Shown here: positions 49,054 through 64,000 of the stretch, one piece after another
Position numbering within the stretch: position 1 is the first letter of the stretch
How the letters are laid out: the number at the start of each line of letters is the position of its first letter
Assembly (NCBI GenBank): GCA_043756865.1
Contig: JAYUQG010000030.1
Location: 30,703-94,702, forward strand
Origin: a bacterium
GTDB taxonomy: Bacteria; Patescibacteriota; Minisyncoccia; Phycocordibacterales; UBA6899
Direction of reading: 5' to 3'
Length of the DNA: 64,000 bases
Position numbers and translations under genes: made by a program
Notes under the pieces: model-generated
Database searches by the model: none
The model's input: the letters and a program-made list of their open reading frames with translations, nothing else
What the model was told of the DNA's origin: nothing

Positions 49054-49102
49054 AAAAAACCCCAGCGCGGTGGCTGTGGTTTCACTCGACGAAGCCTCGG
49101 GC

Positions 49103-49459
49103 TTACAACTGAAAGAACGGGGAAAGGGACGGTGGTGTGGAAACAATGGGCTTGAACTGAATAGCGGTCCACGGATCATCCTTCTCCTTCCCATGAAGGA
49201 GCAATGTGCTCTGCGCAAAGTCGAGACGCGGGTCCTCCGGATAACCAGCGGAAACGGCAACCTCAAACCATGATGGACACATCAGTGCGTCCACAAAGGA
49301 CAACGGCTGGATGTGTGTCCTCGGACCCTTAGTCGCAATCAGACTTTTGACGCCCTCGAAGGTGAGGTTCTGTTCCACGTCGTAGGCAATGCCCCTTTCG
49401 GCCGCCAACTGTGTCAGAGACTTTTCGGTATTCGCTCCCAATACAAAGATTGCAGACAT
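49103..49459 (-). CDS. hypothetical protein
   Basis: 118-aa ORF between repeat copies 1 and 2. Confidence 0.35.
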   Translation of the reverse strand: MSAIFVLGANTEKSLTQLAAERGIAYDVEQNLTFEGVKSLIATKGPRTHIQPLSFVDALMCPSWFEVAVSAGYPEDPRLDFAQSTLLLHGKEKDDPWTAIQFKPIVSTPPSLSPFFQL

Positions 49460-49572
49460 CTGTTCCTTTCAGTTAAATGAACAAGCAAACTTTAGCATGA
49501 TTATCAATTTTGTCAATATTTTATACCCTCCTTTAGTTTCTCGCTCCAAAGGACTGGTGCTTTGTAAGTGCT

Positions 49573-49762
49573 CTTCGCCTATTCACAAGAGAGTACTTCC
49601 AAATTCTAATATAAAAAACTATTCGTCTATTTGCCGCGAGGGTGCTGCAAAATTTTAGCACTCCGGGCACCACGGAGAGTATTTCCATTTTTATAAATGG
49701 ACTACCATTAAGAAAAATTAAGTCACTCGATGAAATTTTTGGTCGCGCGAGAATTAGGAATA
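49573..49762 (+). repeat. MITE-like repeat, degenerate extended copy (copy 2)
   Basis: cttcgcctattcacaagagagtacttccaa...aactattcgtctatttgccgcgagg...ggtcgcgcgagaattaggaatag; contains two left-arm units and one right arm. Confidence 0.65.
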
Positions 49763-49796
49763 GAAAAACCGGGGCATTGCCCCGGGTCGAGAAAGT

Positions 49797-50027
49797 TCAG
49801 TCGAATGCGTCGCGCAATGCCTCGGTCAGCTCCTGTAGTGACTCGTTGTCGCGGGGATGTGCGTTAGCGTGTCCCCCAACGATAAGCGAGACATCGTGGC
49901 AGGGATCGGAACCTTGGCAGATCTGTTCCTTGAGTTTGCACGAAGCTTTCGTAGAGAGGTCGATGCGGTGTTCGCGCCCCTGATCATCGACGACAACGAT
50001 TCTGAGTGTCGACATAGTTAACTCCAT
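49797..50027 (-). CDS. small hypothetical protein
   Basis: 76-aa ORF with a hairpin terminator (ccggggcaatgccccgg-TTTTT on the minus strand) at 49767..49790. Confidence 0.3.
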   Translation of the reverse strand: MELTMSTLRIVVVDDQGREHRIDLSTKASCKLKEQICQGSDPCHDVSLIVGGHANAHPRDNESLQELTEALRDAFD

Positions 50028-50078
50028 TCATTGGGGCAAAACGCCCCGAGTGAATCTAACCTGCTACTTCTTTTTTGT

Positions 50079-50198
50079 CAAAAATATTCGCCTATTTGCC
50101 AGTTACATCCTTATTCGCCTATTCACCACACAGAGTACTTCCAATCCCTAACTCGCTTTGCTCGAAGGGATTTAGGTCGCGCGCGAATTAGAGAATAG
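50079..50198 (+). repeat. MITE-like repeat, long form with duplicated left arm (copy 3)
   Basis: aaaatattcgcctatttgcc-agttacatcc-ttattcgcctattcaccacacagagtacttccaatccctaactcgctttgctcgaagggatttaggtcgcgcgcgaattagagaatag. Confidence 0.8.
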
Positions 50199-50448
50199 AC
50201 AACATGTGCCTTGCGACAGGGTGTGCTGTTTTTGAGAGGCGATAATGAATCGTGAGGCTCCGCTGGTCTTTCTCAAGCATACCGACTGCGTACAAGATAC
50301 CGAGATGTTTGGAGGTGGCCTTGAAGGAAAGCTTAATTTCCTCCGCAATATCCCCTACTGTCGCCTCACGTGACTTCTTTAAGTATTTGAGAATTGCGAG
50401 GCGGCGCGCGTTCGCTAGCGCTTTCATCTGCTTTTCGATGTCTTTCAT
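50188..50448 (-). CDS. ArsR/SmtB-family HTH transcriptional regulator
   Basis: LANARRLAILKYL...ATVGDIAEEIKLSFKATSKHLGILYAVGML is a typical ArsR winged HTH. Confidence 0.75.
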   Translation of the reverse strand: MKDIEKQMKALANARRLAILKYLKKSREATVGDIAEEIKLSFKATSKHLGILYAVGMLEKDQRSLTIHYRLSKTAHPVARHMLSIL

Positions 50449-50470
50449 TTCCCGATAATATCATCTCCAA

Positions 50471-50504
50471 AACTATTCGCCTATTCGCGCGAATTAGAGA
50501 ATAG
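50471..50504 (+). repeat. MITE-like repeat, short 34-bp form (copy 4)
   Basis: aactattcgcctattcgcgcgaattagagaatag. Confidence 0.85.
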
Positions 50505-50640
50505 AAAGTGGAGGGTATTGAGGCTTGTCTTGATTCAAATCAATACTCTCCCTCCCACTCACATCACCATTGACAAATTAATTTGTTATGGTATTTTTTT
50601 CACAGACAACCTGTTTCACTCGACCGCAAGGACCAGCAGT

Positions 50641-50961
50641 ATGAGCAACATCTCTCTTTCCCCCATCGACTTTATCGCTGCTTCATTCGCAGCAGGCAAA
50701 GAACCGGATCTCTACAACTGCGGCTGGAGTACTGAGGCGGTGTTCGAAACACTGCAGTCAGCAAAACAGATGGGCAAACCCTGGGCTGAACTCATGGCAA
50801 AGCGAATCACCGAGCTCTCAGGTGGCACCGTCCAAGTGACGATCGCCGACGGTCGCGGGCCGTACAAAAGCCCCAGCTTGGTACTCCAAGCCGTATATCC
50901 CGACAGCACCCGCATGATTGTGATCGGCGCAGGCATGAATGCCGTCCGCTTCCTCGATTGA
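50641..50961 (+). CDS. hypothetical protein
   Basis: ATG 50641 (MSNISLSPIDF...) with an AAGGAC SD, C-ending codon bias and terminator 50982..51009. Confidence 0.35.
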   Translation: MSNISLSPIDFIAASFAAGKEPDLYNCGWSTEAVFETLQSAKQMGKPWAELMAKRITELSGGTVQVTIADGRGPYKSPSLVLQAVYPDSTRMIVIGAGMNAVRFLD

Positions 50962-50981
50962 CTGCACACGAACCTACCACA

Positions 50982-51009
50982 CCCCGCTCCGGCGGGGTTT
51001 GTTTTTTAT
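50982..51009 (+). terminator. rho-independent terminator abutting repeat copy 5
   Basis: ccccgctccggcgggg-TTTGTTTTTTAT. Confidence 0.75.
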
Positions 51010-51023
51010 CTGAGAAACAACAA

Positions 51024-51116
51024 AACTATTCGCCTATTCACCACACAGAGTACTTCCAATCCCTAACTCGCTTTGCTCGAAGGGATTTAGGTCGCGCGCG
51101 AATTAGAGAATAATAG
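51024..51116 (+). repeat. MITE-like repeat, long form (copy 5)
   Basis: aactattcgcctattcaccacacagagtacttccaatccctaactcgctttgctcgaagggatttaggtcgcgcgcgaattagagaataatag. Confidence 0.85.
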
Positions 51117-51130
51117 AAAATACGAGGAAA

Positions 51131-51178
51131 TTAATTATTCATTATAATACGCCATGGCGTATTATAATGAATAATTAA
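51131..51178. repeat. 48-bp perfect palindrome (copy A of 2)
   Basis: ttaattattcattataatacgccatggcgtattataatgaataattaa is exactly self-complementary, centred on CCATGG, with two TATAAT hexamers; identical to 53925..53972. Confidence 0.9.
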
Positions 51179-51223
51179 ATACGTTTAAAAAAGCGGAAAA
51201 GGTTGTGGAGGGGTGGTTGGTCG

Positions 51224-51242
51224 GGCGCGAATTAGAGAATAG
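51224..51242 (+). repeat. MITE right-arm fragment (solo)
   Basis: ggcgcgaattagagaatag without a paired left arm. Confidence 0.6.
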
Positions 51243-51246
51243 TTTG

Positions 51247-51271
51247 AACTATCCGCAAATTCCGGATAGTT
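51247..51271. promoter_or_regulatory. perfect 9-bp inverted repeat (candidate operator) upstream of the NYN gene
   Basis: aactatccg-caaattc-cggatagtt, 100 bp upstream of ATG 51373. Confidence 0.35.
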
Positions 51272-51372
51272 GCCGACTTGGCAGTATGTGCATTACTTGC
51301 AAGGACTGAATTTCGAATTAATTTTGTTTGCTCAAACATATGATACTGCAACCCACAGGAGAACAACACGAA

Positions 51373-51900
51373 ATGATTCCTTTTGATATACTCTTATACG
51401 TGCAACCTCAGAAAAAAATACACATCTATATTGACGGCAACAACCTTTATCGAGGCGCGAAAGAGCTTGGTTTTGAAATCGACTACAAAAAATTTCGTAA
51501 TTGGCTCCGACAAAAATATAACGCAACAAATGTATATCTGTTCATCGGCCTCGTTCCCGATCGTGTAAAGTTTTACGAGCATCTACAAGAATGCGGTTTT
51601 ATTCTTGTGTTCAAGCAAACAATATCTGTCGAAGGGCGCATAAAAGGAAATTGCGACGCTGAACTTGTCTTGAAAGCAGTGTCAGATTTTTACACCAAAA
51701 CTTTTGACAAATGTATTCTCGTAACAGGAGACGGCGACTTCGGGTGCTTGGTTGAATTCTTGGCGCGCGAAAAGTCGCTTTTGGGTATTATTGCTCCTGA
51801 CAAGAAAAAATGTTCAATCTTGCTGAGAAATAAGAACGTTGAAATCACCTTTCTCAATGACCTTTATCACAAGTTTTCCACAAAAACTGATAAAGCATAA
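51373..51900 (+). CDS. NYN-domain (LabA/PIN-like) predicted ribonuclease
   Basis: Start MIPFDILLYVQPQKKIHIYIDGNNLY with an AGGAGA SD; NYN catalytic Asp residues in IDGNN, DAEL and TGDGDF. Confidence 0.7.
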   Translation: MIPFDILLYVQPQKKIHIYIDGNNLYRGAKELGFEIDYKKFRNWLRQKYNATNVYLFIGLVPDRVKFYEHLQECGFILVFKQTISVEGRIKGNCDAELVLKAVSDFYTKTFDKCILVTGDGDFGCLVEFLAREKSLLGIIAPDKKKCSILLRNKNVEITFLNDLYHKFSTKTDKA

Positions 51901-52083
51901 AAAGAAAAAGCCCCCAATGCATACGTATATGCACCAGGGTCTCTTTCATGGTTATGGGCAAATTATATCAATATTTAGCCATAACGCAAGGATCCAAAAA
52001 TCAACCAAAGTTAGGCAAAAGTATGCCATTAAATCATATCAATACCACTGTGCATTTTTTGCACATTCCTAGTTCCATTAGGA

Positions 52084-52170
52084 CTTTTCGCCTATTCCAC
52101 CACACAGAGTACTTCCAATCCCTAACTCGCTTTACTCAAAGGGATTTAGGTCGCGCGAATTAGAGAATAG
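52084..52170 (+). repeat. MITE-like repeat, long form (copy 6)
   Basis: ttttcgcctattccaccacacagagtacttccaatccctaactcgctttactcaaagggatttaggtcgcgcgaattagagaatag. Confidence 0.85.
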
Positions 52171-52360
52171 AAATGGGGGGAAGAATTTGACTACTGATTT
52201 ACTAATAAAATCGTGACTCGATTTTCGTTTTCATAACAATTCTGCATGGAAGGGCTCCATGAAATTTTGTGTCTCACCATATTAAAAAATATTAGGTATT
52301 GACAAATACAAATTTGTTTGTTATTATATATTTGTTCTTTTCTTCAAACGGAGACTCGCA

Positions 52361-52756
52361 ATGAGCTACAACGGCTACACGGTTCCCACGTACACCATAG
52401 TCACCGCCAACTTCGCAATCATGCCGGCTGACCTCCCGACCAAATTCGAGCACCTCTGGGAGGCCTTCGACGAAAGCGAGACGGAAGTCTCGGCAGCCTA
52501 CATCTTGCGCTACTGCCAAGTACAAGGCAGCTGGGCACCGTTCTCGTTCGAGCAGATCAACGCCTTCTATCAGCGGAAGCCGAAGCGTGGCAACTTCACG
52601 TTCAACCGACTGATCGAACCGGGCATGCACTACGGAATGCCCGGCGAACGTCACCTGACTGGCGGTGGCTGGATCGTGAAGAACGAGTCCGACGGCCTGT
52701 ACTACATCACAGACGACTTCATCAGCTGCGTGCATCGTTCCCTGACGAAGCGCTAG
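52361..52756 (+). CDS. hypothetical protein
   Basis: 131 aa with a GGAGA SD, extreme C-ending codon bias and terminator 52774..52804. Confidence 0.4.
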   Translation: MSYNGYTVPTYTIVTANFAIMPADLPTKFEHLWEAFDESETEVSAAYILRYCQVQGSWAPFSFEQINAFYQRKPKRGNFTFNRLIEPGMHYGMPGERHLTGGGWIVKNESDGLYYITDDFISCVHRSLTKR

Positions 52757-52773
52757 CGCATCACTTTCCCCAT

Positions 52774-52804
52774 CCCGTGCATCCGTGCACGGGGTTTGTT
52801 TTTT
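52774..52804 (+). terminator. rho-independent terminator abutting repeat copy 7
   Basis: cccgtgcatccgtgcacggg-GTTTGTTTTTT; the junction sequence is near-identical to that at 50982..51023. Confidence 0.75.
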
Positions 52805-52821
52805 ATCAAAGATCAAACAAA

Positions 52822-52854
52822 ACCATTCGCCTATTCGCGCGAATTAGAGAATAG
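52822..52854 (+). repeat. MITE-like repeat, short form (copy 7)
   Basis: accattcgcctattcgcgcgaattagagaatag. Confidence 0.85.
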
Positions 52855-52890
52855 ATAAGTGGGGAGAAATAGAGAGTAGAGAATGGAAAA

Positions 52891-53298
52891 CTAGTTCTTG
52901 GTGTAGGTGAAGGTGTGGGGGGAGGTGCCGTGGAGGGTGATTTTGTTTTCGTGGCGCAGGAGGGTGAGGAGGCGGGTGGCGGTAGTGCTCGGAAAATCAA
53001 GGTCTTCCATGACGTCTTTGTGGGTGATTGAAGACTTCGTGTCGAACAGGCTCATGATGAGGTCGGTCTTTAGCGCCATGATCTCATCGCGCTTTGCTGT
53101 CCCCTGTTTGCTCATGTCGATAAGGAAATCGTGTTTGATAGCCTCGACCTCATCATCTGTGGGTGGCGGGCAGACCTGCGAGGCTGGCTCTCGGTCGCGA
53201 TAGACTATTTTTTCCACTTCTACGATTTTTTCTACCACTCGTTCAACAACACGTTCTATTACCTGTGCCTCTGGTGTTGATGGAGTAGAACTGTGCAT
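52891..53298 (-). CDS. hypothetical protein with a C-terminal winged-helix-like region; N-terminal boundary uncertain
   Basis: The ORF track extends to 53823, but the upstream 175 codons traverse three repeat copies and an 18-bp tandem repeat. ATG at 53298 (MHSSTPSTPEAQVIERVVER...) is proposed as the start. The C-terminal ~100 aa look globular. Confidence 0.35.
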   Translation of the reverse strand: MHSSTPSTPEAQVIERVVERVVEKIVEVEKIVYRDREPASQVCPPPTDDEVEAIKHDFLIDMSKQGTAKRDEIMALKTDLIMSLFDTKSSITHKDVMEDLDFPSTTATRLLTLLRHENKITLHGTSPHTFTYTKN

Positions 53299-53301
53299 GG
53301 A

Positions 53302-53326
53302 ACCATTCGCGCGAATAGGAGAATAG
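53302..53326 (+). repeat. MITE-like repeat, truncated short form (copy 8a)
   Basis: accattcgcgcgaataggagaatag. Confidence 0.65.
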
Positions 53327-53360
53327 TTTGAGGTATCCGGGGCTTGAGTTGGTGGGGTGG

Positions 53361-53394
53361 AACTATTCGCCAATTCGCGCGAATTAGAGAATAG
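53361..53394 (+). repeat. MITE-like repeat, short form (copy 8b)
   Basis: aactattcgccaattcgcgcgaattagagaatag. Confidence 0.85.
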
Positions 53395-53427
53395 ATTTGG
53401 GGAGGGTGGGGTGGGACTAGGGCTGGA

Positions 53428-53505
53428 ACCATTCACCACAGGAGTACTTCCATTTTCATCTCCCTCCGGTCGTGAAAATTTGGTCGCGCTCTCATTAGGG
53501 AATAG
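53428..53505 (+). repeat. MITE-like repeat, degenerate long form (copy 8c)
   Basis: accattcaccacaggagtacttccattttcatc...ggtcgcgctctcattagggaatag. Confidence 0.6.
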
Positions 53506-53630
53506 ATCGGAGGGGTCGATGATGGGAAGGTTGGAGACGGAGGTGGGTTCAGTTACCACAGGTATCGCCCCTGTTGCATCTAGCACGGGCAGTTGTGAAA
53601 CGGTGGACTCCCCCACGCCTTCCTGACTTA

Positions 53631-53684
53631 CATGGCTTTCAGGAGTTGCATGACTTTCAGGAGTGGCATGACTCTCCAGACTCC
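53631..53684. repeat. 3 x 18-bp tandem direct repeat
   Basis: catggctttcaggagttg / catgactttcaggagtgg / catgactctccagactcc; encodes ESHATP x3 if the minus-strand ORF is translated. Confidence 0.7.
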
Positions 53685-53865
53685 CAGCTGGTGCCACAGG
53701 CACCACCTCAATCTCAATGGGTATCACCTCGATTGTCTCGGGTGTCATGGGCGTGTCGAGTGTCGCAAGCGTCGCAGTTGTCGCTGGCGGTACCCCATTA
53801 GCATTGGTATTGGTCTCATCCATAACGACATTGTATCAAAAAAAATTCGTTGTAACCCCACATAA

Positions 53866-53899
53866 AACTATTCGCCTATTCGCGCGAATTAGAGAATAG
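53866..53899 (+). repeat. MITE-like repeat, short form (copy 9)
   Basis: aactattcgcctattcgcgcgaattagagaatag. Confidence 0.85.
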
Positions 53900-53924
53900 A
53901 AAGGTGGTAAAAAAACGAGGGAAA

Positions 53925-53972
53925 TTAATTATTCATTATAATACGCCATGGCGTATTATAATGAATAATTAA
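53925..53972. repeat. 48-bp perfect palindrome (copy B of 2)
   Basis: Identical to 51131..51178, again preceded by aaa(a)acgagg(g)aaa following a MITE copy. Confidence 0.9.
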
Positions 53973-54098
53973 TTTAACTACTTTTGTGAGGGTATGTGCG
54001 GTAAATCCAACAAATAACAAAGATTATATCAAAAAAAATCACCACACTTTTCTGCAAAAAACTGTACTTATCCCCGATTCTTATCCCCGAATCCGGTT

Positions 54099-54953
54099 TT
54101 ATTCTTCTTTTCGAACCACTTGATCAAGGGTTTTGCCATCAGATTCCCTTTTCCACTCAGTCCATCCATTTGCATTCCTACCGAGTACATTCTGTGCTGC
54201 GCCTGAGGGACTACTGAATACATAGTCACTCACAAATACATAAGACTCAGGTCCGTCGTCGCGCAACACGCCGTCTTCCATGAGTATTGGACGTAGTTTG
54301 AGATAGCGCTCCTTGGCGCTATCAACAATTTCTTTTCTTGCTCTTGAGCCCGCACGCACAACCATTCCTTCACTGGTGTAGAGTCCCCTCGCCTCTGCTC
54401 CAGGGCCACGGCAAATATATATTTCTTCAGGATTCTTCTCAAAATCTGTAACCTTTTTTAGAAACGTCCATCCGATCGTTGCTAGGATAAGTTTTATGTA
54501 TTCCGCGAAAGTCTCCACGTCTGCACGATCCGACTCGTTCAGCCTTGTTTGACTAGGCTCATTGCCATTTTCAAGACGGACGCGGTTTGCTTCCTTTGTT
54601 TCTCTAATGAGTAGCTCTTCGAGATATTTTGCGTGCGCTTTATTTAGAGAGCCCTGTGTGGAGACAAAACACACTGCGGTACCCCAAAAGTCTTTATTTT
54701 TGTTGTGGCTCCTGATCCGTTCTTTTACGTTCTCACTTTCACCGATATACAGTGAGCCGGTTTCCTGCCCTATATCATTTTCAAGTAGAAAGTAGACTCC
54801 TTGTGCATCTAAGTCAACACGTTGCATCGCCAAATCGATACTATCGCGAGGAATGACGATGGCACGCCCTGTCCAGTTCATGGTTTCAATAGTACGCAGC
54901 CCTGTAGGATTCCCCTCCGCGAGAAAAACCTTGATAGTTGGTCGTGTCTCCAT
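54099..54953 (-). CDS. GIY-YIG nuclease domain protein with C-terminal DUF4357
   Basis: GIY-YIG motif GVYFLLENDIGQETGSLYIGESENVKERIRSHN; the C-terminal ~100 aa match the DUF4357 pattern typical of RM-associated genes. Confidence 0.7.
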   Translation of the reverse strand: METRPTIKVFLAEGNPTGLRTIETMNWTGRAIVIPRDSIDLAMQRVDLDAQGVYFLLENDIGQETGSLYIGESENVKERIRSHNKNKDFWGTAVCFVSTQGSLNKAHAKYLEELLIRETKEANRVRLENGNEPSQTRLNESDRADVETFAEYIKLILATIGWTFLKKVTDFEKNPEEIYICRGPGAEARGLYTSEGMVVRAGSRARKEIVDSAKERYLKLRPILMEDGVLRDDGPESYVFVSDYVFSSPSGAAQNVLGRNANGWTEWKRESDGKTLDQVVRKEE

Positions 54954-55043
54954 CTCTCGATTAGATCACGCGTGGATATTTGACACAAGTCTAATTTCCC
55001 ATGAAATGCTTCAATTCCCTATTTTTTCTACACTTTGATTGAA

Positions 55044-57422
55044 TTACGACGGGGTTTTGTCGTACAGGTATGGCTGGAAGTCTACGAATGCTCGGCTGAT
55101 CTCTTCAGGATCACCGAGATCGGCTACGGCATCAGAAATTGAATTGTTGTATTTGAGACGAAGCAACGGATTAAGCTGTTCTTGACTAAGCTCCTCCACA
55201 CCCACAGTCACATAGTGAGAAAGCACGAAATCAAGAAATGCTTGCTGCTGTGTCTTTAAGTGCGATGTGATGTGCAATCTTGCCTTCGCCGCACGTTCTT
55301 CTCGCGTCATTGGTGGGATTGCATATGCCACGTTAGCAAGCACATCAAAGATGTCACTCTTCTCTGCCTCAATAATCTTTTGCATCTCGGCAAGTTGGTC
55401 ACGACCAAATCCCTTCTCGGCTAGTCCTGCCAAGAGTTTCGCTCGGGTATCCGGTGCACTCCAAATAGTGCGGAGTTCATCTTCGTTCTTGAAGAAATCA
55501 GGTAGCTTACCAAATAGCATTTCCATGAACTGTTGTGCAGACATGGGCTTGCCGTCCGGATGCCAGAACGTTGTCATCATCATGTGTTGAATAGCGCGCT
55601 CTTTCCCGTCGGCAAGTTTCACCTTGATCTTCGACTTCTTGTTGCACACACACGGATCTTGTCCGCACACTGGGCATGCTTCCTTCGGGCATTCACAAGG
55701 AGTTTTGCCACACTTAGTACATGGTTTGGGCGGAGGAACTTTACACACGCATGGTTTCTGCCCGCACTTCTTGCATTGCTCGTCTTCCTCTGGAGGACCA
55801 TCCCATGCAGGGTCGTTGAAATGATGGTATGCCTTCACAAAGTCGTAGATGGTGAAATAATCCTTGCCGTCAAAGAGACGTGTGCCACGTCCAATGATCT
55901 GCTTGAACTCGATCATAGAATTAATGGGGCGCATCAGCACGATGTTGCGAATGTTTCGTGCATCAACACCAGTCGAAAGTTTTTGCGAAGTGGTGAGAAT
56001 GGTGGGAATGGACATTTCATTGTCCTGAAAATCGCGCAAGTGCTGGTCGCCAATTGCTCCATCATTGGCAGTAACACGCTGACAATAATTCGGGTCAGTA
56101 CTTGTCTTCACCTGATTGATGAAGTCGCGAACCAAAAGTGCGTGTGCTTGGTTTGCACAAAATACGAGCGTCTTCTCGTTCTGGTTGATTTGGTTCATGA
56201 ATACCTTCACGCGATGCATTTCACGCTCACGAATCACAATGAGTCTATTAAACTCTGCTTCCTCGTAGCGTTTCCCTGCTTCAATATCTCCCTCCACAAC
56301 TGTGTCATCGGGCGTATAGACGTACTCATCCATCGTCGTTGAGATCTGCTTCACTTTGAATGGGGTGAGAAATCCATCATTGATCCCCTCCTTTAGTGAG
56401 TATACATAGACTGGCTCACCAAAATAGGCATACGTGTCTACGTTGTCTTTGCGCTTTGGTGTTGCAGTGAGTCCGAGCTGCACAGCGGGCTCAAAATACT
56501 CAAGAATTGCACGCCAATTGCTCTCGTCCTTCGCGCCACCACGATGACATTCGTCGATGATGATGAAATCAAAGAAATCCTTGGGGTATTCACCAAAGTA
56601 TGGAGTATCCCCCGGACCACTCAAGAAGGTCTGAAATATGGTAAAGAAGATGCTCCCGTTTGTCGGCACTCTCCCCTTTTGTCGTATTGAGCTGGGGTCA
56701 ATGCGCACGAGTGCATCTTCGGGAAAAGCAGAGAAAGCGTTATATGCCTGATTGGCGAGAATGTTTCTGTCTGCAAGAAAAAGAATGCGGGACTGACGCG
56801 TTGCTTCACGACTCAGATTCCATCGACTCTTAAACAACTTCCATGCAATCTGGAAAGCAATGAAGGTCTTCCCTGTTCCTGTCGCAAGCGTGAGCAACAC
56901 GCGCTGCTTGCTGTCCGCTATGGCATCTAAGGTCTTCTCGACAGCAATATCTTGATAGTAGCGGGCGGGATGACTGCCACCTTTGTCTTCAAACGGAATG
57001 GCGGCAAATTGGTCTCTCCATGTATTTTGCTCAGAGAAGGTCTGATTCCAGAGCTCTTCAGGGGTTGGATATTGTGCAATTTCTCCCTCTGTGACCTCTC
57101 CCGCCATATCAATCGCATAGATACCCTTTCCGTTCGTTGCATAGGTATACCGAATGGCCATCTTTTCTGCGTAGCTCTTTGCTTGCCCTACTCCCTCGGT
57201 CAGTTCTTCGTCCCACGCCTTGGCCTCCACGACCGCGAGCTTATGATTGCGATAGACCAAAACATAATCAGCGATTTGTGGTTTTGCTCGACGACCTTGT
57301 CCTTCAAGGCGACCCTGTGTGATGTGATACTCGCGCAAGATACGACTGCCATCAACAACACCCCAGCCTGCCGCCTTCAGTGCTGGATCAATGTGCTCTG
57401 CTCGTGTTTCTGCTTCATTCAT
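55044..57422 (-). CDS. hsdR: type I restriction enzyme R subunit HsdR, with an inserted triple Cys-rich repeat
   Basis: N-terminal HSDR_N (MNEAETRAEHIDPALKAAGW), helicase motifs I (LTLATGTGKT) and II DECHRG, motifs III-VI, and a unique insert CKKCGQKPCVC...CTKCGKTPCEC...CPVCGQDPCVC. Confidence 0.9.
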   Translation of the reverse strand: MNEAETRAEHIDPALKAAGWGVVDGSRILREYHITQGRLEGQGRRAKPQIADYVLVYRNHKLAVVEAKAWDEELTEGVGQAKSYAEKMAIRYTYATNGKGIYAIDMAGEVTEGEIAQYPTPEELWNQTFSEQNTWRDQFAAIPFEDKGGSHPARYYQDIAVEKTLDAIADSKQRVLLTLATGTGKTFIAFQIAWKLFKSRWNLSREATRQSRILFLADRNILANQAYNAFSAFPEDALVRIDPSSIRQKGRVPTNGSIFFTIFQTFLSGPGDTPYFGEYPKDFFDFIIIDECHRGGAKDESNWRAILEYFEPAVQLGLTATPKRKDNVDTYAYFGEPVYVYSLKEGINDGFLTPFKVKQISTTMDEYVYTPDDTVVEGDIEAGKRYEEAEFNRLIVIREREMHRVKVFMNQINQNEKTLVFCANQAHALLVRDFINQVKTSTDPNYCQRVTANDGAIGDQHLRDFQDNEMSIPTILTTSQKLSTGVDARNIRNIVLMRPINSMIEFKQIIGRGTRLFDGKDYFTIYDFVKAYHHFNDPAWDGPPEEDEQCKKCGQKPCVCKVPPPKPCTKCGKTPCECPKEACPVCGQDPCVCNKKSKIKVKLADGKERAIQHMMMTTFWHPDGKPMSAQQFMEMLFGKLPDFFKNEDELRTIWSAPDTRAKLLAGLAEKGFGRDQLAEMQKIIEAEKSDIFDVLANVAYAIPPMTREERAAKARLHITSHLKTQQQAFLDFVLSHYVTVGVEELSQEQLNPLLRLKYNNSISDAVADLGDPEEISRAFVDFQPYLYDKTPS

Positions 57423-58075
57423 GATCTTCGTTTCTTTACTGGATACTGTTTCACTGAAACTCCGTCGTACCGCTCCTTGAGCCCCTGATAAATGAGACCA
57501 ACCAGTGGCTTGTAGTCATTAGCGGAATCGATCTGCGCGAGCGCCTGACGATAACGATTCTTGTTTTCTTGCTCTACTTTTATGGAGATACCGATCAGTC
57601 CATAGCGCTCCAAGATCAAGTTTGCTGCTAGGCGTGCAGTGCGTCCATTGCCATCTCGGAATGGATGCACACAGGTAATAGTGTAGTGCACCCAAGCCGC
57701 AAGCTGAATAACCTGCTCAACCATCTTGTGTACTTTCTGTGTATTTCCATTTCTCCCCTTGATGACCCCTTCGGCCTTTTCTATCGCTTGGAGTTTTTGC
57801 GCTAATTCTGCTGCTCGTTCCTCCATGAGGAAAGGCACTCTCGAGTGATGCGGTGGGATGTGCTTGGAATTCGTGATCTCTAGGTTTTCTGTACGATACT
57901 TTCCCGCGATCTCAGTCCACGCATCCCTAAATATTTCCTTGTGAATCTCTTTGATAGTTTCGACGGAAATCGGCTTATGCAACTGAGCAAACTTACGCAC
58001 AAAACGAGAGGCTCGAATGACTCCGATTGCCTCTCGTTTTTGCAGCTCCTCCTCAGTGCGTGGTCGCTCAGCCAT
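57419..58075 (-). CDS. Fic-family protein (AMPylation/Doc-like toxin domain)
   Basis: Fic motif HPFRDGNGRTARL; 218 aa; sits between hsdS and hsdR. Confidence 0.85.
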   Translation of the reverse strand: MAERPRTEEELQKREAIGVIRASRFVRKFAQLHKPISVETIKEIHKEIFRDAWTEIAGKYRTENLEITNSKHIPPHHSRVPFLMEERAAELAQKLQAIEKAEGVIKGRNGNTQKVHKMVEQVIQLAAWVHYTITCVHPFRDGNGRTARLAANLILERYGLIGISIKVEQENKNRYRQALAQIDSANDYKPLVGLIYQGLKERYDGVSVKQYPVKKRRS

Positions 58076-58082
58076 GGAATGA

Positions 58083-58277
58083 CTAGGCTACCTTTTGTGC
58101 AAGTTTTTCGAATTCTCCGCGATCAAGCTTGCTCCCCTCGAGGGCACTGGAATAATAGGCGTGTTCAATATCCCAACCCTTCTCAAGGGCGGACTTCTCT
58201 TTCGGCGTGAGCTTCGAAATCTGCTTCTCTGCTTGTTTCTTACTCGCCATGAGGTGTACGAGCTGTAGATTCTTCAT
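58083..58277 (-). CDS. small ORF carrying the Fic inhibitory alpha-inh motif (VbhA-like antitoxin, or split N-terminus of a class II Fic)
   Basis: 64 aa with the S/T-x-x-x-E-G/N motif SSALEGS. The stop is 7 nt before the fic ATG, in a different frame. Confidence 0.45.
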   Translation of the reverse strand: MKNLQLVHLMASKKQAEKQISKLTPKEKSALEKGWDIEHAYYSSALEGSKLDRGEFEKLAQKVA

Positions 58278-58357
58278 ATATCGACTATACCGACTAATGG
58301 GTAATTTGACAAGTTCTCTTGAAATGGCCTTCTTTGCATAGGGCTCATCTCATTATA

Positions 58358-59548
58358 TTACAATTTCCCTGTGAAGGCCTGATGGAGAAGCGACTTCTTC
58401 AGCGCCTTCAGCGCGTCGAGTTTGCGTTTGTAGATGGATTCGAGGTGTTGGGTTTCGGATTCGAGTTTCCTGATTATTGTTACGACTCTTTCTTGTTCAG
58501 TATGAGATGGGAGAGCAATTGGGTAAGGTTCGAGAGTTTCTTTGGTCACCCCGATCTGACCTGCCGCTCGCTCAGAATGGTAAATAATGTATTCGAGGAT
58601 TGTGGAGTGCTTCAGGAAGTAAAAAAGGAAGTCGCGGGAGATTTTTGATTCATCTGGCACTGCTTTCATCAATGCGACGTTATAAGCCCCTTCTAGTCCA
58701 CGGAGGATTTGAAAAAGTGGGGGGCCGTAGCGTCCAATCATTACGTCATCAGCGTTGCAGAATCGTCTTGCCTGAGCGCGCGGAATGTAAACGACATGGT
58801 TGTCGCTCTTGTAGTCACGAATCTGAATGAGGCGGATGTTATCTTCCTGCTTGGTTTTCGAGAATACCAGCTTCGGTGGCTGTGAGCCACCGATAAACTC
58901 ACAAACTTCTCCCAGGGATGACTCCGCCCACCCCGGGCCGCGCTGTGTGAAGACAGATTGGAGGTGGCTTTCAAAGAGGGCGCGTGCGTTTTGCAGGTTT
59001 TTCTCGGCATTGGCTTTTGCTGTGGCGATGCCCTTAAACGCTTCGTCGAGCAGACCAACGATCCGCTGCTGTTCGTCCAGCGGTGGGACGGGAATAGTGT
59101 AATCCTCGATGAAATCCTTGGACACTCGCTTGTGCCCGACTGCGCCTGTCATCCGCGCCGAACCTTCGACCCGAAATGTTTCACGAGAAAGGAAGTAGTA
59201 GAGCCATTCCTTGCTGACTGTTGGGTCGGGGCGAAACACATAGTATTCGCTCGAACCGAAGCCGATTCCGTTCTTCAGCCCATCTGCGATTCCAAGTTTC
59301 CCGTTTTCAAAGCAAGGCGTGATTTTCGCGAGAAGAACATCACCATCGGCGAAGTAAGTGTAGCTTCCGACGACTGCGGACAGCGGCTTCGTTTGAGTCG
59401 CCTGCACGAACTTCACGTCAATACCCATGTCCTCCATCGGCAGGAACGAGACCAGCGAAGAAGATGAAACCTTTTCACGTGCTTCGCTTTTCGGGGGCTT
59501 TATCTGGCACACCTCCGCGAGCGCCTTTGTATGCCACCCCTTCTTCAT
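58358..59548 (-). CDS. hsdS: type I restriction-modification specificity subunit HsdS
   Basis: Start MKKGWHTKALAEV overlaps the hsdM stop by 4 bp (ATGA). Two target-recognition domains are separated and followed by the conserved LPPL.EQ..I and coiled-coil repeats. Confidence 0.85.
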   Translation of the reverse strand: MKKGWHTKALAEVCQIKPPKSEAREKVSSSSLVSFLPMEDMGIDVKFVQATQTKPLSAVVGSYTYFADGDVLLAKITPCFENGKLGIADGLKNGIGFGSSEYYVFRPDPTVSKEWLYYFLSRETFRVEGSARMTGAVGHKRVSKDFIEDYTIPVPPLDEQQRIVGLLDEAFKGIATAKANAEKNLQNARALFESHLQSVFTQRGPGWAESSLGEVCEFIGGSQPPKLVFSKTKQEDNIRLIQIRDYKSDNHVVYIPRAQARRFCNADDVMIGRYGPPLFQILRGLEGAYNVALMKAVPDESKISRDFLFYFLKHSTILEYIIYHSERAAGQIGVTKETLEPYPIALPSHTEQERVVTIIRKLESETQHLESIYKRKLDALKALKKSLLHQAFTGKL

Positions 59549-61002
59549 AGCAGCGCTTTGATATTCTCCAGCACTTCTGCGCTCTCGGCGTCCAGCGCGG
59601 CGATTTCCTTCATAATGTCTTTTGGACTCTTGTGCACGATTTCTTCTCCGCCGTTCGGATTCTTTACGGAGAGATCGAAAGTCTTCTGGTCGATGGTGGA
59701 AATATCTACGGACCACGACTTCAGTGAGTCGGCCTTTGTTTTTTGAAGCTTGATGAACTCTGCAAGATCGGCATCATTCAAGGGATTAGTCTTTCCCATG
59801 TTGCGACCGGGCTCCAGCTGGTAGTACCAGACCTTGCGGGTCTTTGATCCTTTCTCGAAGAAGAGCACGACCGTCTTCACTCCCGCACCCTGGAATGTAC
59901 CACTCGGCATATCGAGCACAGTATGGAGGTTGCAACTCTCCAAAAGGAGCTTCCGCAAGCTGACTGAGGCATTGTCTGTGTTTGAGAGGAACGTGTTCTT
60001 GATGACCACGCCACCGCGTCCCCCCGCTTTGAGCATCTTGATGAAATGCTGAAGGAAAAGAAACGCAGTCTCGCCGGTACGAATAGGAAAATTTTGCTGC
60101 ACTTCTGGTCGCTCTTTCCCACCAAATGGCGGATTGGCGAGGACTACTTCATAGCGATCCTTTTCTTGAATGTCAGCAAGGTTTTCAGTAAGCGTGTTGG
60201 TGTGGATGATGTTGGGCGCTTCTATACCATGGAGGATCATATTCATGATTGCAATCACGTAGGCGAGGGACTTCTTTTCCTTGCCGTAAAACGTGCCCTC
60301 CTGCAGTTTTTTGTCTTGCGCAACGGTACGCTTGGGATTCATTTCCTGTAGATAGTCGTACGCCTCACAAAGGAAGCCCGCGGAGCCAACTGCAGCGTCG
60401 TAAACACGCTCACCGAGCTTGGGTGCAGTCACCGCCACCATGGCGCGAATGAGTGGGCGTGGCGTGTAATACTCGCCACCGTTTCTGCCAGCATTCCCCA
60501 TGTTCTTGATCTTGGTTTCGTAGAGGTGTGAGAGCTCGTGCTTCTCAGTCTGGGAACGAAATCGGAGTTCATCGATATGGTCGATGACTTCGCGGAGATT
60601 ATACCCACTCTGCATGCGGTTTTTTATCTCGCCGAAAATCTCACCGATCTTGTATTCGATGGTGTTCGGACCGCTCGCCTTTTGCTTGAAAGCGTGGAGA
60701 TACGGGAAAAGCTTTTGATTCACAAACGCGAGCAAATCCTCGCCTTTCATTGAGGTGTTATGGTCGAGCTTTCCATCATTTCCCCGCGGAGCTGCCCACG
60801 TGCCCCAACGATATTCTGGATCGAGGATGTAGGAGTATTTCTTGCCGTCTACCTTGGCCTCCATGGCCTTGTCGTGCTCCAGATCGTCGAGGTATTTTAG
60901 GAAGAGGAGCCAAGAAGTCTGCTCGGTATAGTCGAGTTCGCTCGATGATCCGGCATCCTTATGCAGTATGTCGTCGATATTCTTGAAAGTTTGCTCAAAC
61001 AT
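59545..61002 (-). CDS. hsdM: type I restriction-modification N6-adenine DNA methyltransferase HsdM
   Basis: N-terminal HsdM_N region, an AdoMet motif and the catalytic NPPFGG. Confidence 0.9.
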   Translation of the reverse strand: MFEQTFKNIDDILHKDAGSSSELDYTEQTSWLLFLKYLDDLEHDKAMEAKVDGKKYSYILDPEYRWGTWAAPRGNDGKLDHNTSMKGEDLLAFVNQKLFPYLHAFKQKASGPNTIEYKIGEIFGEIKNRMQSGYNLREVIDHIDELRFRSQTEKHELSHLYETKIKNMGNAGRNGGEYYTPRPLIRAMVAVTAPKLGERVYDAAVGSAGFLCEAYDYLQEMNPKRTVAQDKKLQEGTFYGKEKKSLAYVIAIMNMILHGIEAPNIIHTNTLTENLADIQEKDRYEVVLANPPFGGKERPEVQQNFPIRTGETAFLFLQHFIKMLKAGGRGGVVIKNTFLSNTDNASVSLRKLLLESCNLHTVLDMPSGTFQGAGVKTVVLFFEKGSKTRKVWYYQLEPGRNMGKTNPLNDADLAEFIKLQKTKADSLKSWSVDISTIDQKTFDLSVKNPNGGEEIVHKSPKDIMKEIAALDAESAEVLENIKALL

Positions 61003-61257
61003 AATTGGCTAAGTATCTATTGAGCAAGCATAAGCTTTTTACCCCTCTTTTACAATCAGTAATGCTTGCGCCTAGTTAAAGGAGGCTTTAACAGAAGGCG
61101 TGAGCAAATTGCATATCTTATTATGCGACGCAATTAAAAGAATAACTGACTTATGCCCGCTCACATGCAACCTAACAAATTTTAGTAGTTACAAAGGTAT
61201 GTTAAATTTACTAAATTTACTTAAAGCTACAGAGATTTATCTAGACCTTGTCCTGTT

Positions 61258-61842
61258 TCAGTATTGCTGAGCAACAACAAAGTCGTACAATTCTTTAAAT
61301 GACGGGCATCTAGTCTTAAGTACGTCCAAGGATACGTGGGCAGCGATGATGCTGTTGTGGGTAGTGTTTAAATACCTTTTTTCTTTGTTAGAACATAAAA
61401 AAACCAAATCTCTCAGCTTCTGAGAAAGTATGTTTTCTGGCAAACCCTTTGTTTTGGGTAGTTTTTTTAGATTTAATGCTCTTTTGATACCCGATGGATC
61501 ACTCAAAAACCAAGCCTCAATTTCTTCTGTTGGTATACAAATTAGGTATTTTGGGAATGGATTTGCTTTTAAAATAGAGCTGAGCTCAAGCCTGAGACTT
61601 TTTAAGTCGCTTCTGTCGCGGTCATGAACTAAAATGAGAATATCACAGCCCCTACTTTTAAGATTAAGTGCATAATCTCCAGCCTTTCTGCGCAACTTGG
61701 CGCAGCCACCCGCAATTGACTGCTTAAAAGCAATATTCTGTTTCGTAGTAATTCGCCTAATTATTATTTTTGTCGACTCAAAATCACTCAAATCTTCAGC
61801 AATGATTCCGATGCATTTAACTTTACTCATATGCAAATCCAC
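61258..61842 (-). CDS. small TOPRIM-like (DUF4276-like) protein, predicted nuclease partner of the upstream ATPase
   Basis: 194 aa. A conserved Glu in IGIIAEDLSD and a DxD in ILILVHDRD match TOPRIM/OLD-type catalytic residues. Overlaps the ATPase gene by 20 bp and is AT-rich. Confidence 0.55.
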   Translation of the reverse strand: MDLHMSKVKCIGIIAEDLSDFESTKIIIRRITTKQNIAFKQSIAGGCAKLRRKAGDYALNLKSRGCDILILVHDRDRSDLKSLRLELSSILKANPFPKYLICIPTEEIEAWFLSDPSGIKRALNLKKLPKTKGLPENILSQKLRDLVFLCSNKEKRYLNTTHNSIIAAHVSLDVLKTRCPSFKELYDFVVAQQY

Positions 61843-63040
61843 TTTCCTTCCAATATTCCCCCAAATTACCAGATTTTTCTAAATATTCACGAAGTGCTCT
61901 AAAGTCATTTTTTGACAACGACTGAGTCAGGGATTTAACTTGAGTACCCTTTCCTTTCTGTTTATTCACCAATAAAACATTTTCAGGCTTAAGCATATCC
62001 AACACATAATCTGAATGTGTACTTAAGATAATTTGCTTGTGTGCCGACTCTTGTTTAATTAATTCAATTACGCTACTCAGTAATCCGTGATGAACACAGA
62101 CCTCAGGTTCTTCAATTAGTAGCAGATTACTTTGATCATTTAGTATATAAAATATAAGTGCAAGTGTCTTAAAAGTACCCTCGGAAAGCTGATTTAGCGA
62201 CAAGGAGAGGCCGTCGATCTTGATTGTCGGAATAACAATGTGTTTACTCCTCTCGATAATTTTTACTTTGCCACCAGACTTAACTTCATGCGAATTACTT
62301 GGCAATTCATGCTCGATAAAATCGAGTTCTTCAATAAGCCCAATTCCATTTTTCCCAACTGTATTCACGTATTGCCTAAATTTACCGGCGTTGTTCTTCT
62401 TTATGGTATATAAATCAAAGATAAATTTATCGTGAGTTCTTTCTGACCTAATATTTCTAAAATGCGACCCCGAATTCTCTGATTCAATTTCAATTGAAAC
62501 TGGACATCTGCTCGGGTCTGAAAACTGTGTTGCACCATAATAGCTTATGTTTAATAGGTATTTCAATATTTCAAATGCCGTACCTCGATCAGGGTCGTTT
62601 TTGCCCTGTTTAATGAAATAGCCACGACTAGTTAATCCACTCTTGTGTCGAAACGGAAAATTTTGCATCTCGGGCGGGATTTCTTTCCACTTAGATTTGA
62701 CGCCAGTTTTTCGATAATTAATTTGAATTGAATAGATTTGATCTCGACTACTTTCATCTGGATCATAAAAGATAGTCGCTTTTACATCTAGTAATACTTT
62801 ATTTATTTCTAACTTAAGATTTATTGTAGCTTTTGAAAAAGAAAGCCTTCGCGCAACTTGCATTATGTTCCTGCCAAATCTGGACCTGGGTAAATTTTGA
62901 AAAAGGAGGAAACTATTTAATATATTGCTCTTACCTGCACCGTTAGTTCCTATTAACACCGTGAGATTTTCGCTGATATTTAACTTAGTACTAATACAGG
63001 ATTTATAGTTCGTTATGCTGTATTTTTGTAATTTAATCAT
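61823..63040 (-). CDS. ABC/SMC-like AAA ATPase (AAA_21/AAA_15-type), candidate abortive-infection ATPase
   Basis: Walker A GTNGAGKSN, Walker B LLLIEEPE, a D-loop/H-motif STHSDYVL, and a long helical insert between them. Very AT-rich relative to the neighbours. Confidence 0.75.
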   Translation of the reverse strand: MIKLQKYSITNYKSCISTKLNISENLTVLIGTNGAGKSNILNSFLLFQNLPRSRFGRNIMQVARRLSFSKATINLKLEINKVLLDVKATIFYDPDESSRDQIYSIQINYRKTGVKSKWKEIPPEMQNFPFRHKSGLTSRGYFIKQGKNDPDRGTAFEILKYLLNISYYGATQFSDPSRCPVSIEIESENSGSHFRNIRSERTHDKFIFDLYTIKKNNAGKFRQYVNTVGKNGIGLIEELDFIEHELPSNSHEVKSGGKVKIIERSKHIVIPTIKIDGLSLSLNQLSEGTFKTLALIFYILNDQSNLLLIEEPEVCVHHGLLSSVIELIKQESAHKQIILSTHSDYVLDMLKPENVLLVNKQKGKGTQVKSLTQSLSKNDFRALREYLEKSGNLGEYWKESGFAYE

Positions 63041-63307
63041 TTTTTGATTTTATCATTAAGAATTCATCCTGGCTTTATCCGCTCATACGATAAATGATCT
63101 TGGCGAAAACAAGGTTTGGTTCGGCGCAAAGAATGAGACGTCCTGGTGGAGTTTCCAAAAAACCCAACCTCGCTCGGAGGTTCAGATTTTGGATGCAATC
63201 CGACGGCGGTTTTGCGCAGTGTGTCAGCGGGAATAGTCGGCTATTTCCGCGACACCGAGCACAAAACCAGCTAGGAGTGCGCCAAAATTGGACGTCCCTC
63301 CAACCAA

Positions 63308-64000
63308 CTAGTAAGACCTAAGTTTGTTTATGTTGCCGTGTTGGCGAATCTTTTCATGCGCCTTGGCCTCAATTTGGCGAATACGTTCACGAGTCACACC
63401 AAACTCCTTGCCAACCTCTTCTAATGTGTGTGTAACACCATCTAGGAGGCCGTGGCGCATTTCAAGGATTTTGCGTTCCTTCGGGCTAAGATCCGAAAGT
63501 ATCTCCCCCACTTGATCCGAAAGAATACGGCGGGAAGATTCTGCATCGGGAGAGAGAATTTTGTCGTCGGCGATGAATTCACCGAGTGTCGACTTCTCAT
63601 CGTCATCACCAATCGGCTTCTCGAGTGACACCGTGTCTTGGTCGATATTTTCGATGATGCGGACGCGCTCGACATCGATACCCATCTCGGTCGAAACTTC
63701 CTCGGCCATTGGCTCGCGTCCAAGGTCTTGGGTCAGACGGCGGACCACCTGCTTGTATTTCGCAATGGTCTCCACCATGTGCACAGGAATACGGATGGTG
63801 CGGCTTTGGTCGGCGAGTGCGCGGGTAATAGCCTGACGAATCCACCATGTGGCGTACGTCGAGAATTTAAAACCTTTCGACCAGTCGAATTTGTCTACTG
63901 CTCTAAAGAGTCCGAGGTTCCCCTCTTGAATGAGGTCAAGGAGTGTGAGGTCGGGAGAGCGTCCTACATACTTCTTCGCAACGGAAACCACGAGGCGGAG
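63308..64000 (-). CDS. rpoD: primary RNA polymerase sigma factor (sigma-70/RpoD family), 3' portion; the 5' end lies beyond the window
   Basis: Region 2 ([34 protein letters not shown]), region 3 and region 4 ([21 protein letters not shown]). The ORF is open to the window edge. Confidence 0.85.

Follow-up and report, generated by a model that had tools for sequence, protein, structure and literature searches.

Defence genes embedded in type I restriction-modification (RM) operons have precedents, among them TgvAB and the 'guilt-by-embedding' approach, and both the embedding concept and Fic-domain cassettes placed between the type I core genes have already been published. The RAMA domain is predicted to discriminate N6-methyladenine (m6A) in RM systems and is fused to URI (GIY-YIG) nucleases (PMC4738411), and DUF4276 has been assigned to TOPRIM (PMC12065111; bioRxiv 2024.01.29.577857). 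HEC-01, a two-gene family that pairs an ATPase with a DUF4276 protein, was discovered through its embedding in the Hma (helicase-methylase-ATPase) system, a position that is not a requirement for membership. Here we describe a locus at positions 54099-63040 of a 64,000-nucleotide stretch of a Patescibacteria (candidate phyla radiation, CPR) chromosome (GenBank assembly GCA_043756865.1, contig JAYUQG010000030.1, positions 30,703 to 94,702; this whole stretch is hereafter the window). We consider it likely to be a genuine two-unit defence locus, in which one unit joins a type I RM operon with an antitoxin-Fic pair and a PDC-S14 nuclease, and the other is an autonomous HEC-01 pair. Family membership and genomic context point to the immune role. 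Each part falls into a family that has already been catalogued (type I RM, PDC-S04/Fic toxin-antitoxin, PDC-S14, or HEC-01), and with the components and the embedding principle published, current views are not overturned. The locus adds an annotated, layered defence region in Patescibacteria/CPR, a group that is hard to culture and to study experimentally.

Two units in one locus

The eight genes of the island are all co-oriented on the minus strand, according to the open reading frame (ORF) list and the Pfam and PADLOC matches. They lie at or within a few bases of where the original prediction, made from the DNA letters alone, had placed them, and every domain that it claimed for the RM and the ATPase/TOPRIM genes was matched by Pfam and PADLOC hidden Markov models (HMMs). 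The locus consists of two independent units, the RM block (54099-61002) and the HEC-01 pair (61258-63040). The AT-rich spacer that had been predicted between hsdM and the pair is exactly 255 bp long (61003-61257, 34.9% GC) and marks the junction between the two units; consensus and repeat scans detected no consensus promoter and no flanking direct repeat there. The island is composite, as originally proposed, but the count is two units, not three or four: the type I RM operon includes both PDC-S14 and the Fic pair, and HEC-01 is independent.

The two units differ in composition. The mean GC content of the window is 48.0%, with a standard deviation (sd) of 2.9%, when calculated in windows sized as the region 61003-63040; that region itself has 35.7% GC, which is the minimum of the whole 64 kb and approximately 4 sd under the mean. 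The RM block is native-like at 49.0% GC. Its codon-usage distance to the core genes is 0.03-0.06 (0.10 for the antitoxin ORF of 195 nt), compared with 0.016-0.055 among the core genes themselves, and the HEC-01 pair, at 35-38% GC, shows a distance of 0.10-0.115. The sharp GC drop noted at 61.0-63.1 kb is thus real but confined to HEC-01, and it is only the HEC-01 pair, not the RM block, that is compositionally foreign.

The RM operon and its embedded genes

The three core genes are hsdM (59545-61002), encoding an N6-adenine DNA methyltransferase subunit with an NPPF motif; hsdS (58358-59548), encoding a specificity subunit with two target-recognition domains; and hsdR (55044-57422), encoding an EcoEI_R_C-type restriction subunit. 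HsdM matches Pfam N6_Mtase (3e-62) and HsdM_N (4e-10) as well as PADLOC MTase_I (2e-163), and its translation contains LANPPFGG. HsdS matches Pfam Methylase_S in two stretches and PADLOC Specificity_I (4e-105) over residues 7-452; its true start is the ATG at 59548, which overlaps the hsdM stop as ATGA, and not the GTG at 59716. HsdR matches Pfam ResIII (6e-37), Helicase_C, and EcoEI_R_C (5e-31) and PADLOC REase_I (5e-141). It carries the PD-(D/E)xK nuclease motif (D52, E66-A-K68) and the superfamily 2 (SF2) helicase motifs GTGKT and DECH, and D52/E66/K68, GTGKT, and DECH are invariant in a three-way alignment. The sequence features that define type I RM subunits are thus present in HsdM, HsdS, and HsdR, which together carry the motifs of an intact type I enzyme. 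Such an enzyme would be expected to methylate host DNA at a bipartite site that HsdS specifies, and to translocate and cut unmethylated incoming DNA. Between its helicase and EcoEI_R_C regions (residues ~553-606, window 55600-55760), HsdR also has a Cys-rich linker with three CxxCGxxPCxC repeats, kept in two to three copies in the HsdR proteins of the two sister operons described below; this linker may be a zinc-binding module.

The gap between hsdS and hsdR holds a two-gene module. Its fic gene (57419-58075) encodes a putative Fic toxin of 218 aa that matches Pfam Fic (3e-21) and PADLOC PDC-S04 (2e-23). The protein carries the canonical motif HPFRDGNGRTAR, which includes H137 and fits HxFx(D/E)GNGRxxR, and residues H137, F139, G142, N143, G144, R145, and R148 are invariant in 35 aligned sequences. 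The second gene (58083-58277) is the alpha-inh mini-ORF that had been predicted upstream of fic; it encodes a putative antitoxin of 64 aa whose SSALEG matches [ST]xxxE[GN], and the stretch WD[IV]EHAYYSSxLEGS is invariant among six orthologues. A gap of 80 nt separates hsdS from the antitoxin ORF, fic follows this ORF after 7 nt in another frame, and the fic stop overlaps the hsdR start (ATGA). A promoter-like site on the same strand, TTGTCA-17-TATAGT (58284-58312; 10/12 matches in the consensus scan), lies with its end ~7 nt from the antitoxin ATG. Both the -35 and the -10 element, as well as their spacing, are kept in an RM-embedded copy from Lloydbacteria and in one stand-alone copy. The module probably brings its own promoter, reading antitoxin-fic-hsdR.

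The best solved-structure relative of the Fic protein is human FICD (2.8e-14), and the class I toxin VbhT scores only 6e-5. When the antitoxin and Fic are joined, they align with human FICD as one continuous domain, the score rising from 56.6 to 67.5 bits, and the alignment runs through the inhibitory helix (FICD HIYHTVAIEGN against HAYYSSALEGS in the window). The collinearity of the two ORFs with class II FICD in this alignment suggests that gene fission took place independently. The homologues form at least 120 clusters; all of those listed are 203-239 aa long, with 56-82% identity, and among the matches listed, those bearing source names all come from CPR lineages. A small ORF precedes fic in all six contexts, at 53-88% identity. 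The split lengths of the homologue clusters and the conserved upstream ORF indicate a conserved two-gene family, not decay, and a frameshifted class II Fic pseudogene was rejected on these grounds. The pair stands alone, outside any RM operon, in 4/6 contexts. A metagenome scan with the Fic alignment was dominated by the generic HPFR[ED]GNG and returned one close locus and 79 distant Fic loci.

A separate small upstream protein with an [ST]xxxE[GN] inhibitory helix is the hallmark of class I Fic toxin-antitoxins and is found here; the window Fic falls outside the VbhT/FicT sequence clade. From its sequence features, then, the pair is predicted to work like class I, yet lies beyond that clade, and the module is presumably a class-I-type toxin-antitoxin. 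It belongs to a large Fic toxin-antitoxin family with CPR-named relatives that appears to be a split version of an FICD-type enzyme. In another CPR locus (L173:5742-13225), a stand-alone antitoxin-Fic pair is accompanied by an AbiEii toxin, a second Fic protein (294 aa), and an m6A-dependent endonuclease similar to DpnI, in what looks like a separate small defence island.

Two sister operons place the module in context. A Lloydbacteria contig (L169) has the same hsdS-antitoxin-fic-hsdR order with the ATGA overlap, and its proteins are 73% (HsdM), 64% (HsdR), and 78% (Fic) identical to those of the window. The second operon, L178, is much closer, with identities of 94% for HsdM, 89% for HsdR, and 96% for PDC-S14, but only 32% for HsdS; for the sister operons taken together, HsdS identity is 26-32%, against 64-94% for their HsdM and HsdR. 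DNA identity of the RM operon to the close relative with a different module is ~82-85%. In place of the antitoxin-Fic pair, the hsdS-hsdR slot of L178 (L178:2217-2956) contains an unrelated pair of 59-aa and 184-aa proteins, and the DNA homology between the window and L178 ends at the hsdS stop and restarts 6 nt before the hsdR start. Since L178 has a different pair at exactly the same place, the slot exchanges two-gene modules. These near-isogenic RM operons, told apart by the two-gene module in the slot, constitute a natural experiment for 'guilt-by-embedding'. The 59-aa and 184-aa proteins have no Pfam or PADLOC match, and the larger contains RKLRNSQH, a possible HEPN-like Rx6H motif; the pair is a candidate for a new RM-embedded toxin-antitoxin or defence module. 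The Lloydbacteria operon carries, besides its Fic pair, a Shedu SduA (DUF4263) gene between hsdM and hsdS (L169:5365-6534), giving three layers inside one RM operon.

The RM block closes with the gene for PDC-S14 (54099-54953), which starts 90 nt downstream of the hsdR stop. The protein matches Pfam DUF4357 (4e-21) and GIY-YIG (6e-6; 27 bits, cutoff 22.6), and the PADLOC PDC-S14 profile (2.2e-97) aligns residues 1-280 with profile positions 13-295 of 301, so that the match is full-length. Both the GIY-YIG catalytic fold with its residues and the C-terminal DUF4357/RAMA-type domain were recognised. The catalytic core is invariant and conservation extends over the full length in 40 sequences, and the AlphaFold2 model is confident, with a pLDDT (predicted LDDT) score of 91.5. 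The gene adjoins RM-type clusters in 7/7 contexts examined, with at least three different HsdR types, and on this basis we assign it to the RM unit. It follows hsdR in L178. In an unrelated type I family (L179-182), the homologue starts 3 nt after hsdR, and a Fic_N-Fic gene lies upstream of hsdM. On plasmids of Salinibacter and Acinetobacter, homologues close type I clusters; on further plasmids, one lies near hsdR (Fulvitalea) and one next to a helicase/methyltransferase cluster (Rhodothermus). The RAMA-like domain would read the adenine-methylation state, and the nuclease would add a second, methylation-aware cutting activity. Consistent RM linkage and the RAMA fold make PDC-S14 a good candidate for a methyl-adenine-reading nuclease.

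The HEC-01 pair and the flanks of the island

The second unit, inserted between the terminator of the sigma gene and hsdM, comprises HEC-01A (61823-63040), a 405-aa ABC/SMC-type ATPase, and HEC-01B (61258-61830), a 190-aa DUF4276 TOPRIM-type putative nuclease. The predicted overlap of an ABC/SMC-like ATPase gene with a TOPRIM-like gene was borne out by the ORF list and the domain matches. HEC-01A matches Pfam AAA_21 (4e-21), AAA_15, and SMC_N and PADLOC HEC-01A (6e-29). Its motifs comprise Walker A GTNGAGKS, Q172, the signature LSEGT, Walker B IEEPE, and H342; GxNxxGKS, Q172, LSEGT, IEEPE, and H342 are invariant in 30 homologues, as expected of an intact ATPase. The Walker B of this subclade has Glu for the usual Asp in 30/30 aligned sequences. 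Among solved structures, the GajA head is the best relative (4.5e-10), with PtuA, Rad50, OLD, and AriA heads also found. HEC-01B matches Pfam DUF4276 (5e-14; 53 bits, cutoff 30.2) and PADLOC HEC-01B (9e-12), and its acidic residues E12, D70-x-D72, and E102/E103/E105 are invariant in the alignment, in keeping with the partner of such an ATPase. A PDB profile search with the DUF4276 alignment gave no match. In the ORF list, HEC-01B reaches 61842; its most likely start is the ATG at 61830, with an 8-nt overlap with the ATPase gene, in agreement with the gene call on an identical Logan contig and with the homologue L084 (in L083, the overlap is 14 nt).

The homologues are at most 54% identical, and the named ones come mostly from Bacteroidota, plus one from Parcubacteria. 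In three independent other contexts, the A and B genes occur together and overlapping, amid housekeeping genes and without an adjoining RM system. The window has no Hma components, and the pair therefore does not occupy a position in an Hma system. The pairs in other hosts have 31-36% GC; of these, one belongs to a Parcubacteria genome with 49% GC and another to a contig with 42%. Since AT-richness recurs in every host examined, it is a trait of the HEC-01 cassette lineage and not simply a clock of recent transfer. The signature of horizontal acquisition that had been read from the layout and the GC drop thus stands for HEC-01 as an outlier in GC and codon usage, but the drop itself is a property of the cassette. 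At the thresholds used, searches of plasmid, phage, and IMG/VR collections returned no relatives of HEC-01A, and no convincing target-site duplications or inverted repeats flank the pair.

As predicted, the island lies between a sigma-factor gene and a repeat-rich region. On the right, the C-terminus of a sigma-70 factor (Pfam regions 2, 3, and 4) extends from 63308 to beyond 64000, and a terminator-like hairpin with a T-run after the sigma gene (63166-63182, minus strand) marks where the inserted material ends on the right. Identity of the sigma fragment to metagenome-assembled genomes (MAGs) labelled Saccharibacteria, Paceibacterota, or Kaiserbacteria is 76-84%, which places the host in Patescibacteria (CPR). 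The island genes are absent downstream of sigma in all 80 sigma-anchored relatives, so that the proposed synteny comparison shows variable presence. Neither of the outcomes named as refuting the original prediction, missing HMM support or identical synteny with native composition, was observed. In L004, the nearest relative, sufB comes ~1.15 kb after sigma, together with sufS and further genes matching window 20.9-32.5 kb; in L005 and L006, a homologue of window 21993-22802 comes after sigma. The intervening segment of ~31 kb (32.6-63.3 kb), from the suf operon to sigma, takes in the island and the repeat array; it appears lineage-specific because it has no counterpart next to sigma in these relatives. 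No tRNA genes and no Rfam matches were found, and no integrase or transposase was present among the ORFs scanned.

Several side observations concern these flanks. The sigma-70 fragment (63308-63991) matches the PADLOC MzaA model (3e-52); we rejected MzaA as a domain-level false positive, the gene being a conserved housekeeping sigma found in all 80 relatives, and automated defence annotation would probably flag it falsely via the shared sigma-like domain. The ~31-kb region also encodes a T4 gp30.3-like protein (36298-36759), a SET-domain protein (37370-37864), an NYN nuclease (51328-51900), and an 86-aa Csa3/CARF-like winged helix-turn-helix protein (50188-50448), a homologue of which lies directly downstream of sigma in Kaiserbacteria (L008). 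On the minus strand, a 310-aa ORF (orf310, 52891-53823) has no Pfam match; it is probably real, since its start region and Pro/Thr/Glu-rich N-terminus are kept directly downstream of PDC-S14 in L178. For the same reason, the left border of the island is not simply 54099.

The region 48950-53985 contains an array of ~10 imperfect palindromic repeats with arms CTATTCGCCTATTCGCGC and GCGCGAATTAGAGAATAG, which abut (32-nt form) or are parted by a ~55-nt insert (86-nt form); the array ends at ~53975. The repeats separate small ORFs; 11-12 copies are present where chance would give 0.07, the island contains none, and the 86-nt copies at 50112-50197 and 51027-51112 are identical. A perfect palindrome of 53 nt (51126-51178 = 53920-53972) lies beside two repeat copies. 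Relative to L178 (6358-6438), window 53830-54039 has an extra ~193 bp between the stop of PDC-S14 and the start of orf310; this insertion carries one 32-nt repeat and the 53-nt palindrome and is flanked by a 17-nt direct repeat (53830-53846, 54023-54039). Judging from this insertion, the repeats behave as small mobile elements, similar to miniature inverted-repeat transposable elements (MITE-like), and not as fixed intergenic signals. Insertion of the RM block into a copy of the NYN cassette was considered and rejected, the homology being limited to a 92-nt repeat-plus-palindrome unit.

Proposed mechanism, alternatives and related systems

Under the proposed explanation, the locus would act in layers. 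The type I enzyme would provide the first by restricting unmethylated DNA. In the second, the inhibitory glutamate of the alpha-inh antitoxin would block productive ATP binding by Fic; if the antitoxin were lost or displaced in infection, Fic would AMPylate an essential host protein, and the resulting growth arrest would abort an infection that had escaped restriction. As precedents in other Fic toxins, FicT acts on gyrase and topoisomerase IV, and the S. oneidensis SoFic enzyme reportedly targets EF-Tu. The GIY-YIG nuclease, with its RAMA-like domain reading the methylation state, would form a third layer. Independently of these, the HEC-01 ATPase may serve as a sensor or regulator that licenses the TOPRIM nuclease in infection, by analogy with OLD, Gabija, and PARIS. 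A further, rather doubtful extension sees a modular 'RM chassis', present in CPR as well as in other bacteria, with dedicated docking sites in the hsdS-hsdR gap and after hsdR; the docked effectors would be functionally gated by the type I enzyme. Fic, co-transcribed and translationally coupled with HsdR, would then be set free once a phage had disabled or evaded restriction, in a PrrC-like guarding role, and PDC-S14 would read the m6A marks written by HsdM, as a methylation-guided fourth RM activity and not as an independent neighbour.

Several points weigh against the two-unit defence reading. PDC-S04 (Fic) and PDC-S14 are candidate families only; support for a TOPRIM fold in HEC-01B comes from Pfam, motifs, and literature, with a single-sequence model at pLDDT 39; and the HEC-01 representative gave no protection against any phage in the sole published assay. 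The 80 sigma-anchored relatives are distant (sigma at most 84%, SufB 67% identity), so that they establish variable presence, not a dated insertion. Given the native composition of the RM block and the collinearity of PDC-S14 and orf310 with L178, the left edge and the age of the island are undefined. Finally, the Fic module could be a plain addiction cassette. In that case the pair would be selfish, stabilising itself and the RM operon by post-segregational killing and playing no role against phages. Class I Fic toxin-antitoxin modules are classic toxin-antitoxin systems, and the stand-alone pairs, found beside transposases and other mobile or defence genes, fit this view, as do the promoter-like site of the module and the candidate status of PDC-S04. 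However, two diverged RM operons carry the module as a precise insertion with translational coupling to hsdR, other two-gene modules fill the slot in sister operons, and the Sofic Fic-domain protein is reported to protect via AMPylation-mediated abortive infection (PMC12249575). We therefore regard a purely selfish module as somewhat unlikely; addiction and defence are in any case not mutually exclusive. HEC-01 might similarly be non-immune, either a selfish cassette or an ATPase-nuclease that serves repair or the maintenance of a mobile element. An ABC ATPase with a TOPRIM protein also fits repair machines, such as RecF/RecR and Rad50-type heads, and the homologues lie amid housekeeping genes and not in defence islands in 3/3 contexts. 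Against this, the best HMM and structural-sequence relatives are the defence ATPases GajA, PtuA, AriA, OLD, and AbiLi, the patchy, AT-rich, and horizontally scattered distribution is typical of defence cassettes, and the pair lies in a defence context here; we hold a non-immune role to be unlikely.

The assignment of individual genes to the two units bears on two further alternatives. PDC-S14 could be selfish, a homing-type GIY-YIG endonuclease living as a parasite at the 3' ends of RM operons and not a functional partner of the RM system. Its invariant catalytic core and full-length conservation in 40 sequences, its occurrence with unrelated RM families, and its 96% identity in L178, kept while the neighbouring slot and hsdS diverged, make this improbable, as does the RAMA fold, which is typical of RM-associated methyl-adenine readers and not of the DNA-binding modules of homing endonucleases. 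The opposite simplification would merge all eight genes into one integrated MADS/Hma-type system, with the ATPase/TOPRIM pair as a functional RM subunit. Mad4 is described as a DUF4276 homologue, HEC-01 was discovered in Hma systems, the pair is co-oriented with and adjacent to hsdM, and PADLOC returned secondary matches to mad2 (HsdM, 5e-50), mad5 (HsdS, 1e-30), and mad3 (ATPase, 4e-20). The type I RM scores of the same subunits are far better (2e-163, 4e-105, and 5e-141), and the ATPase scores better with HEC-01A. The listed PADLOC matches do not include mad1 or mad6-8, and the complete list for HEC-01B (17 families) does not include mad4. Furthermore, the pair lies 13 GC points apart from the RM block, with outlying codon usage and the 255-bp spacer before hsdM; its closest homologues (50-54% identity) stand alone amid housekeeping genes in 3/3 contexts, and the 3.9 kb upstream of hsdM in the Lloydbacteria sister operon contain no such pair. 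With the mad1-mad8 set represented by only these weaker matches to mad2, mad3, and mad5, we rejected MADS/Hma for the whole locus as very improbable.

The two-unit defence locus can be compared with known systems unit by unit. The HEC-01 pair shares with described HEC-01 members the two domains, the gene order, and the overlapping genes; it differs in standing alone beside a type I RM operon instead of within Hma, and its nearest relatives are at most 54% identical. With the OLD family (P2 Old, Gabija GajA, and PARIS AriA/AriB), it shares the ABC ATPase head and TOPRIM, with HMM matches to AriA, GajA, and Old, and it differs from that family in its IEEPE Walker B. The two domains, fused in one polypeptide in Old and GajA, are here on separate proteins of overlapping genes. 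Unlike Gabija, the window has no GajB helicase and no adjacent UvrD-like gene, and unlike in PARIS, the TOPRIM protein is of the DUF4276 type, with no DUF4435 or AriB match.

The antitoxin-Fic pair resembles VbhT/VbhA and FicT/FicA in its separate upstream inhibitory-helix ORF and canonical Fic motif, but its toxin is much closer to class II FICD than to VbhT (2.8e-14 against 6e-5). It shares the Fic core with SoFic (PADLOC SoFic 1.8e-21), for which abortive infection by AMPylation has been proposed. SoFic is a protein of ~370 aa with a cis inhibitory helix and extra domains, and the reported anti-Sofic AS1 is encoded downstream; the window Fic has 218 aa and matches only model positions 88-263 of 361, and thus lacks the full SoFic architecture. 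PDC-S14 is a member of the GIY-YIG(URI)-RAMA architecture described by Iyer, Zhang and Aravind (2016), with no material difference.

The closest parallel to the RM block is provided by type I operons with embedded genes, including PrrC in the EcoprrI prr locus, TgvAB in Vibrio cholerae VPI-2, and the PDC candidates, in which, as in the window, a complete hsdM/hsdS/hsdR set is interrupted. Physical coupling to the RM complex is a feature of PrrC; the coupling observed in the window is at the level of the genes. The window shares with PrrC and TgvAB a co-oriented, translationally coupled, small toxin-type module between the core genes, and it differs from them in its CPR host and in its effector, which is an AMP-transferase toxin-antitoxin pair by family and not an anticodon nuclease or a GmrSD-like enzyme.

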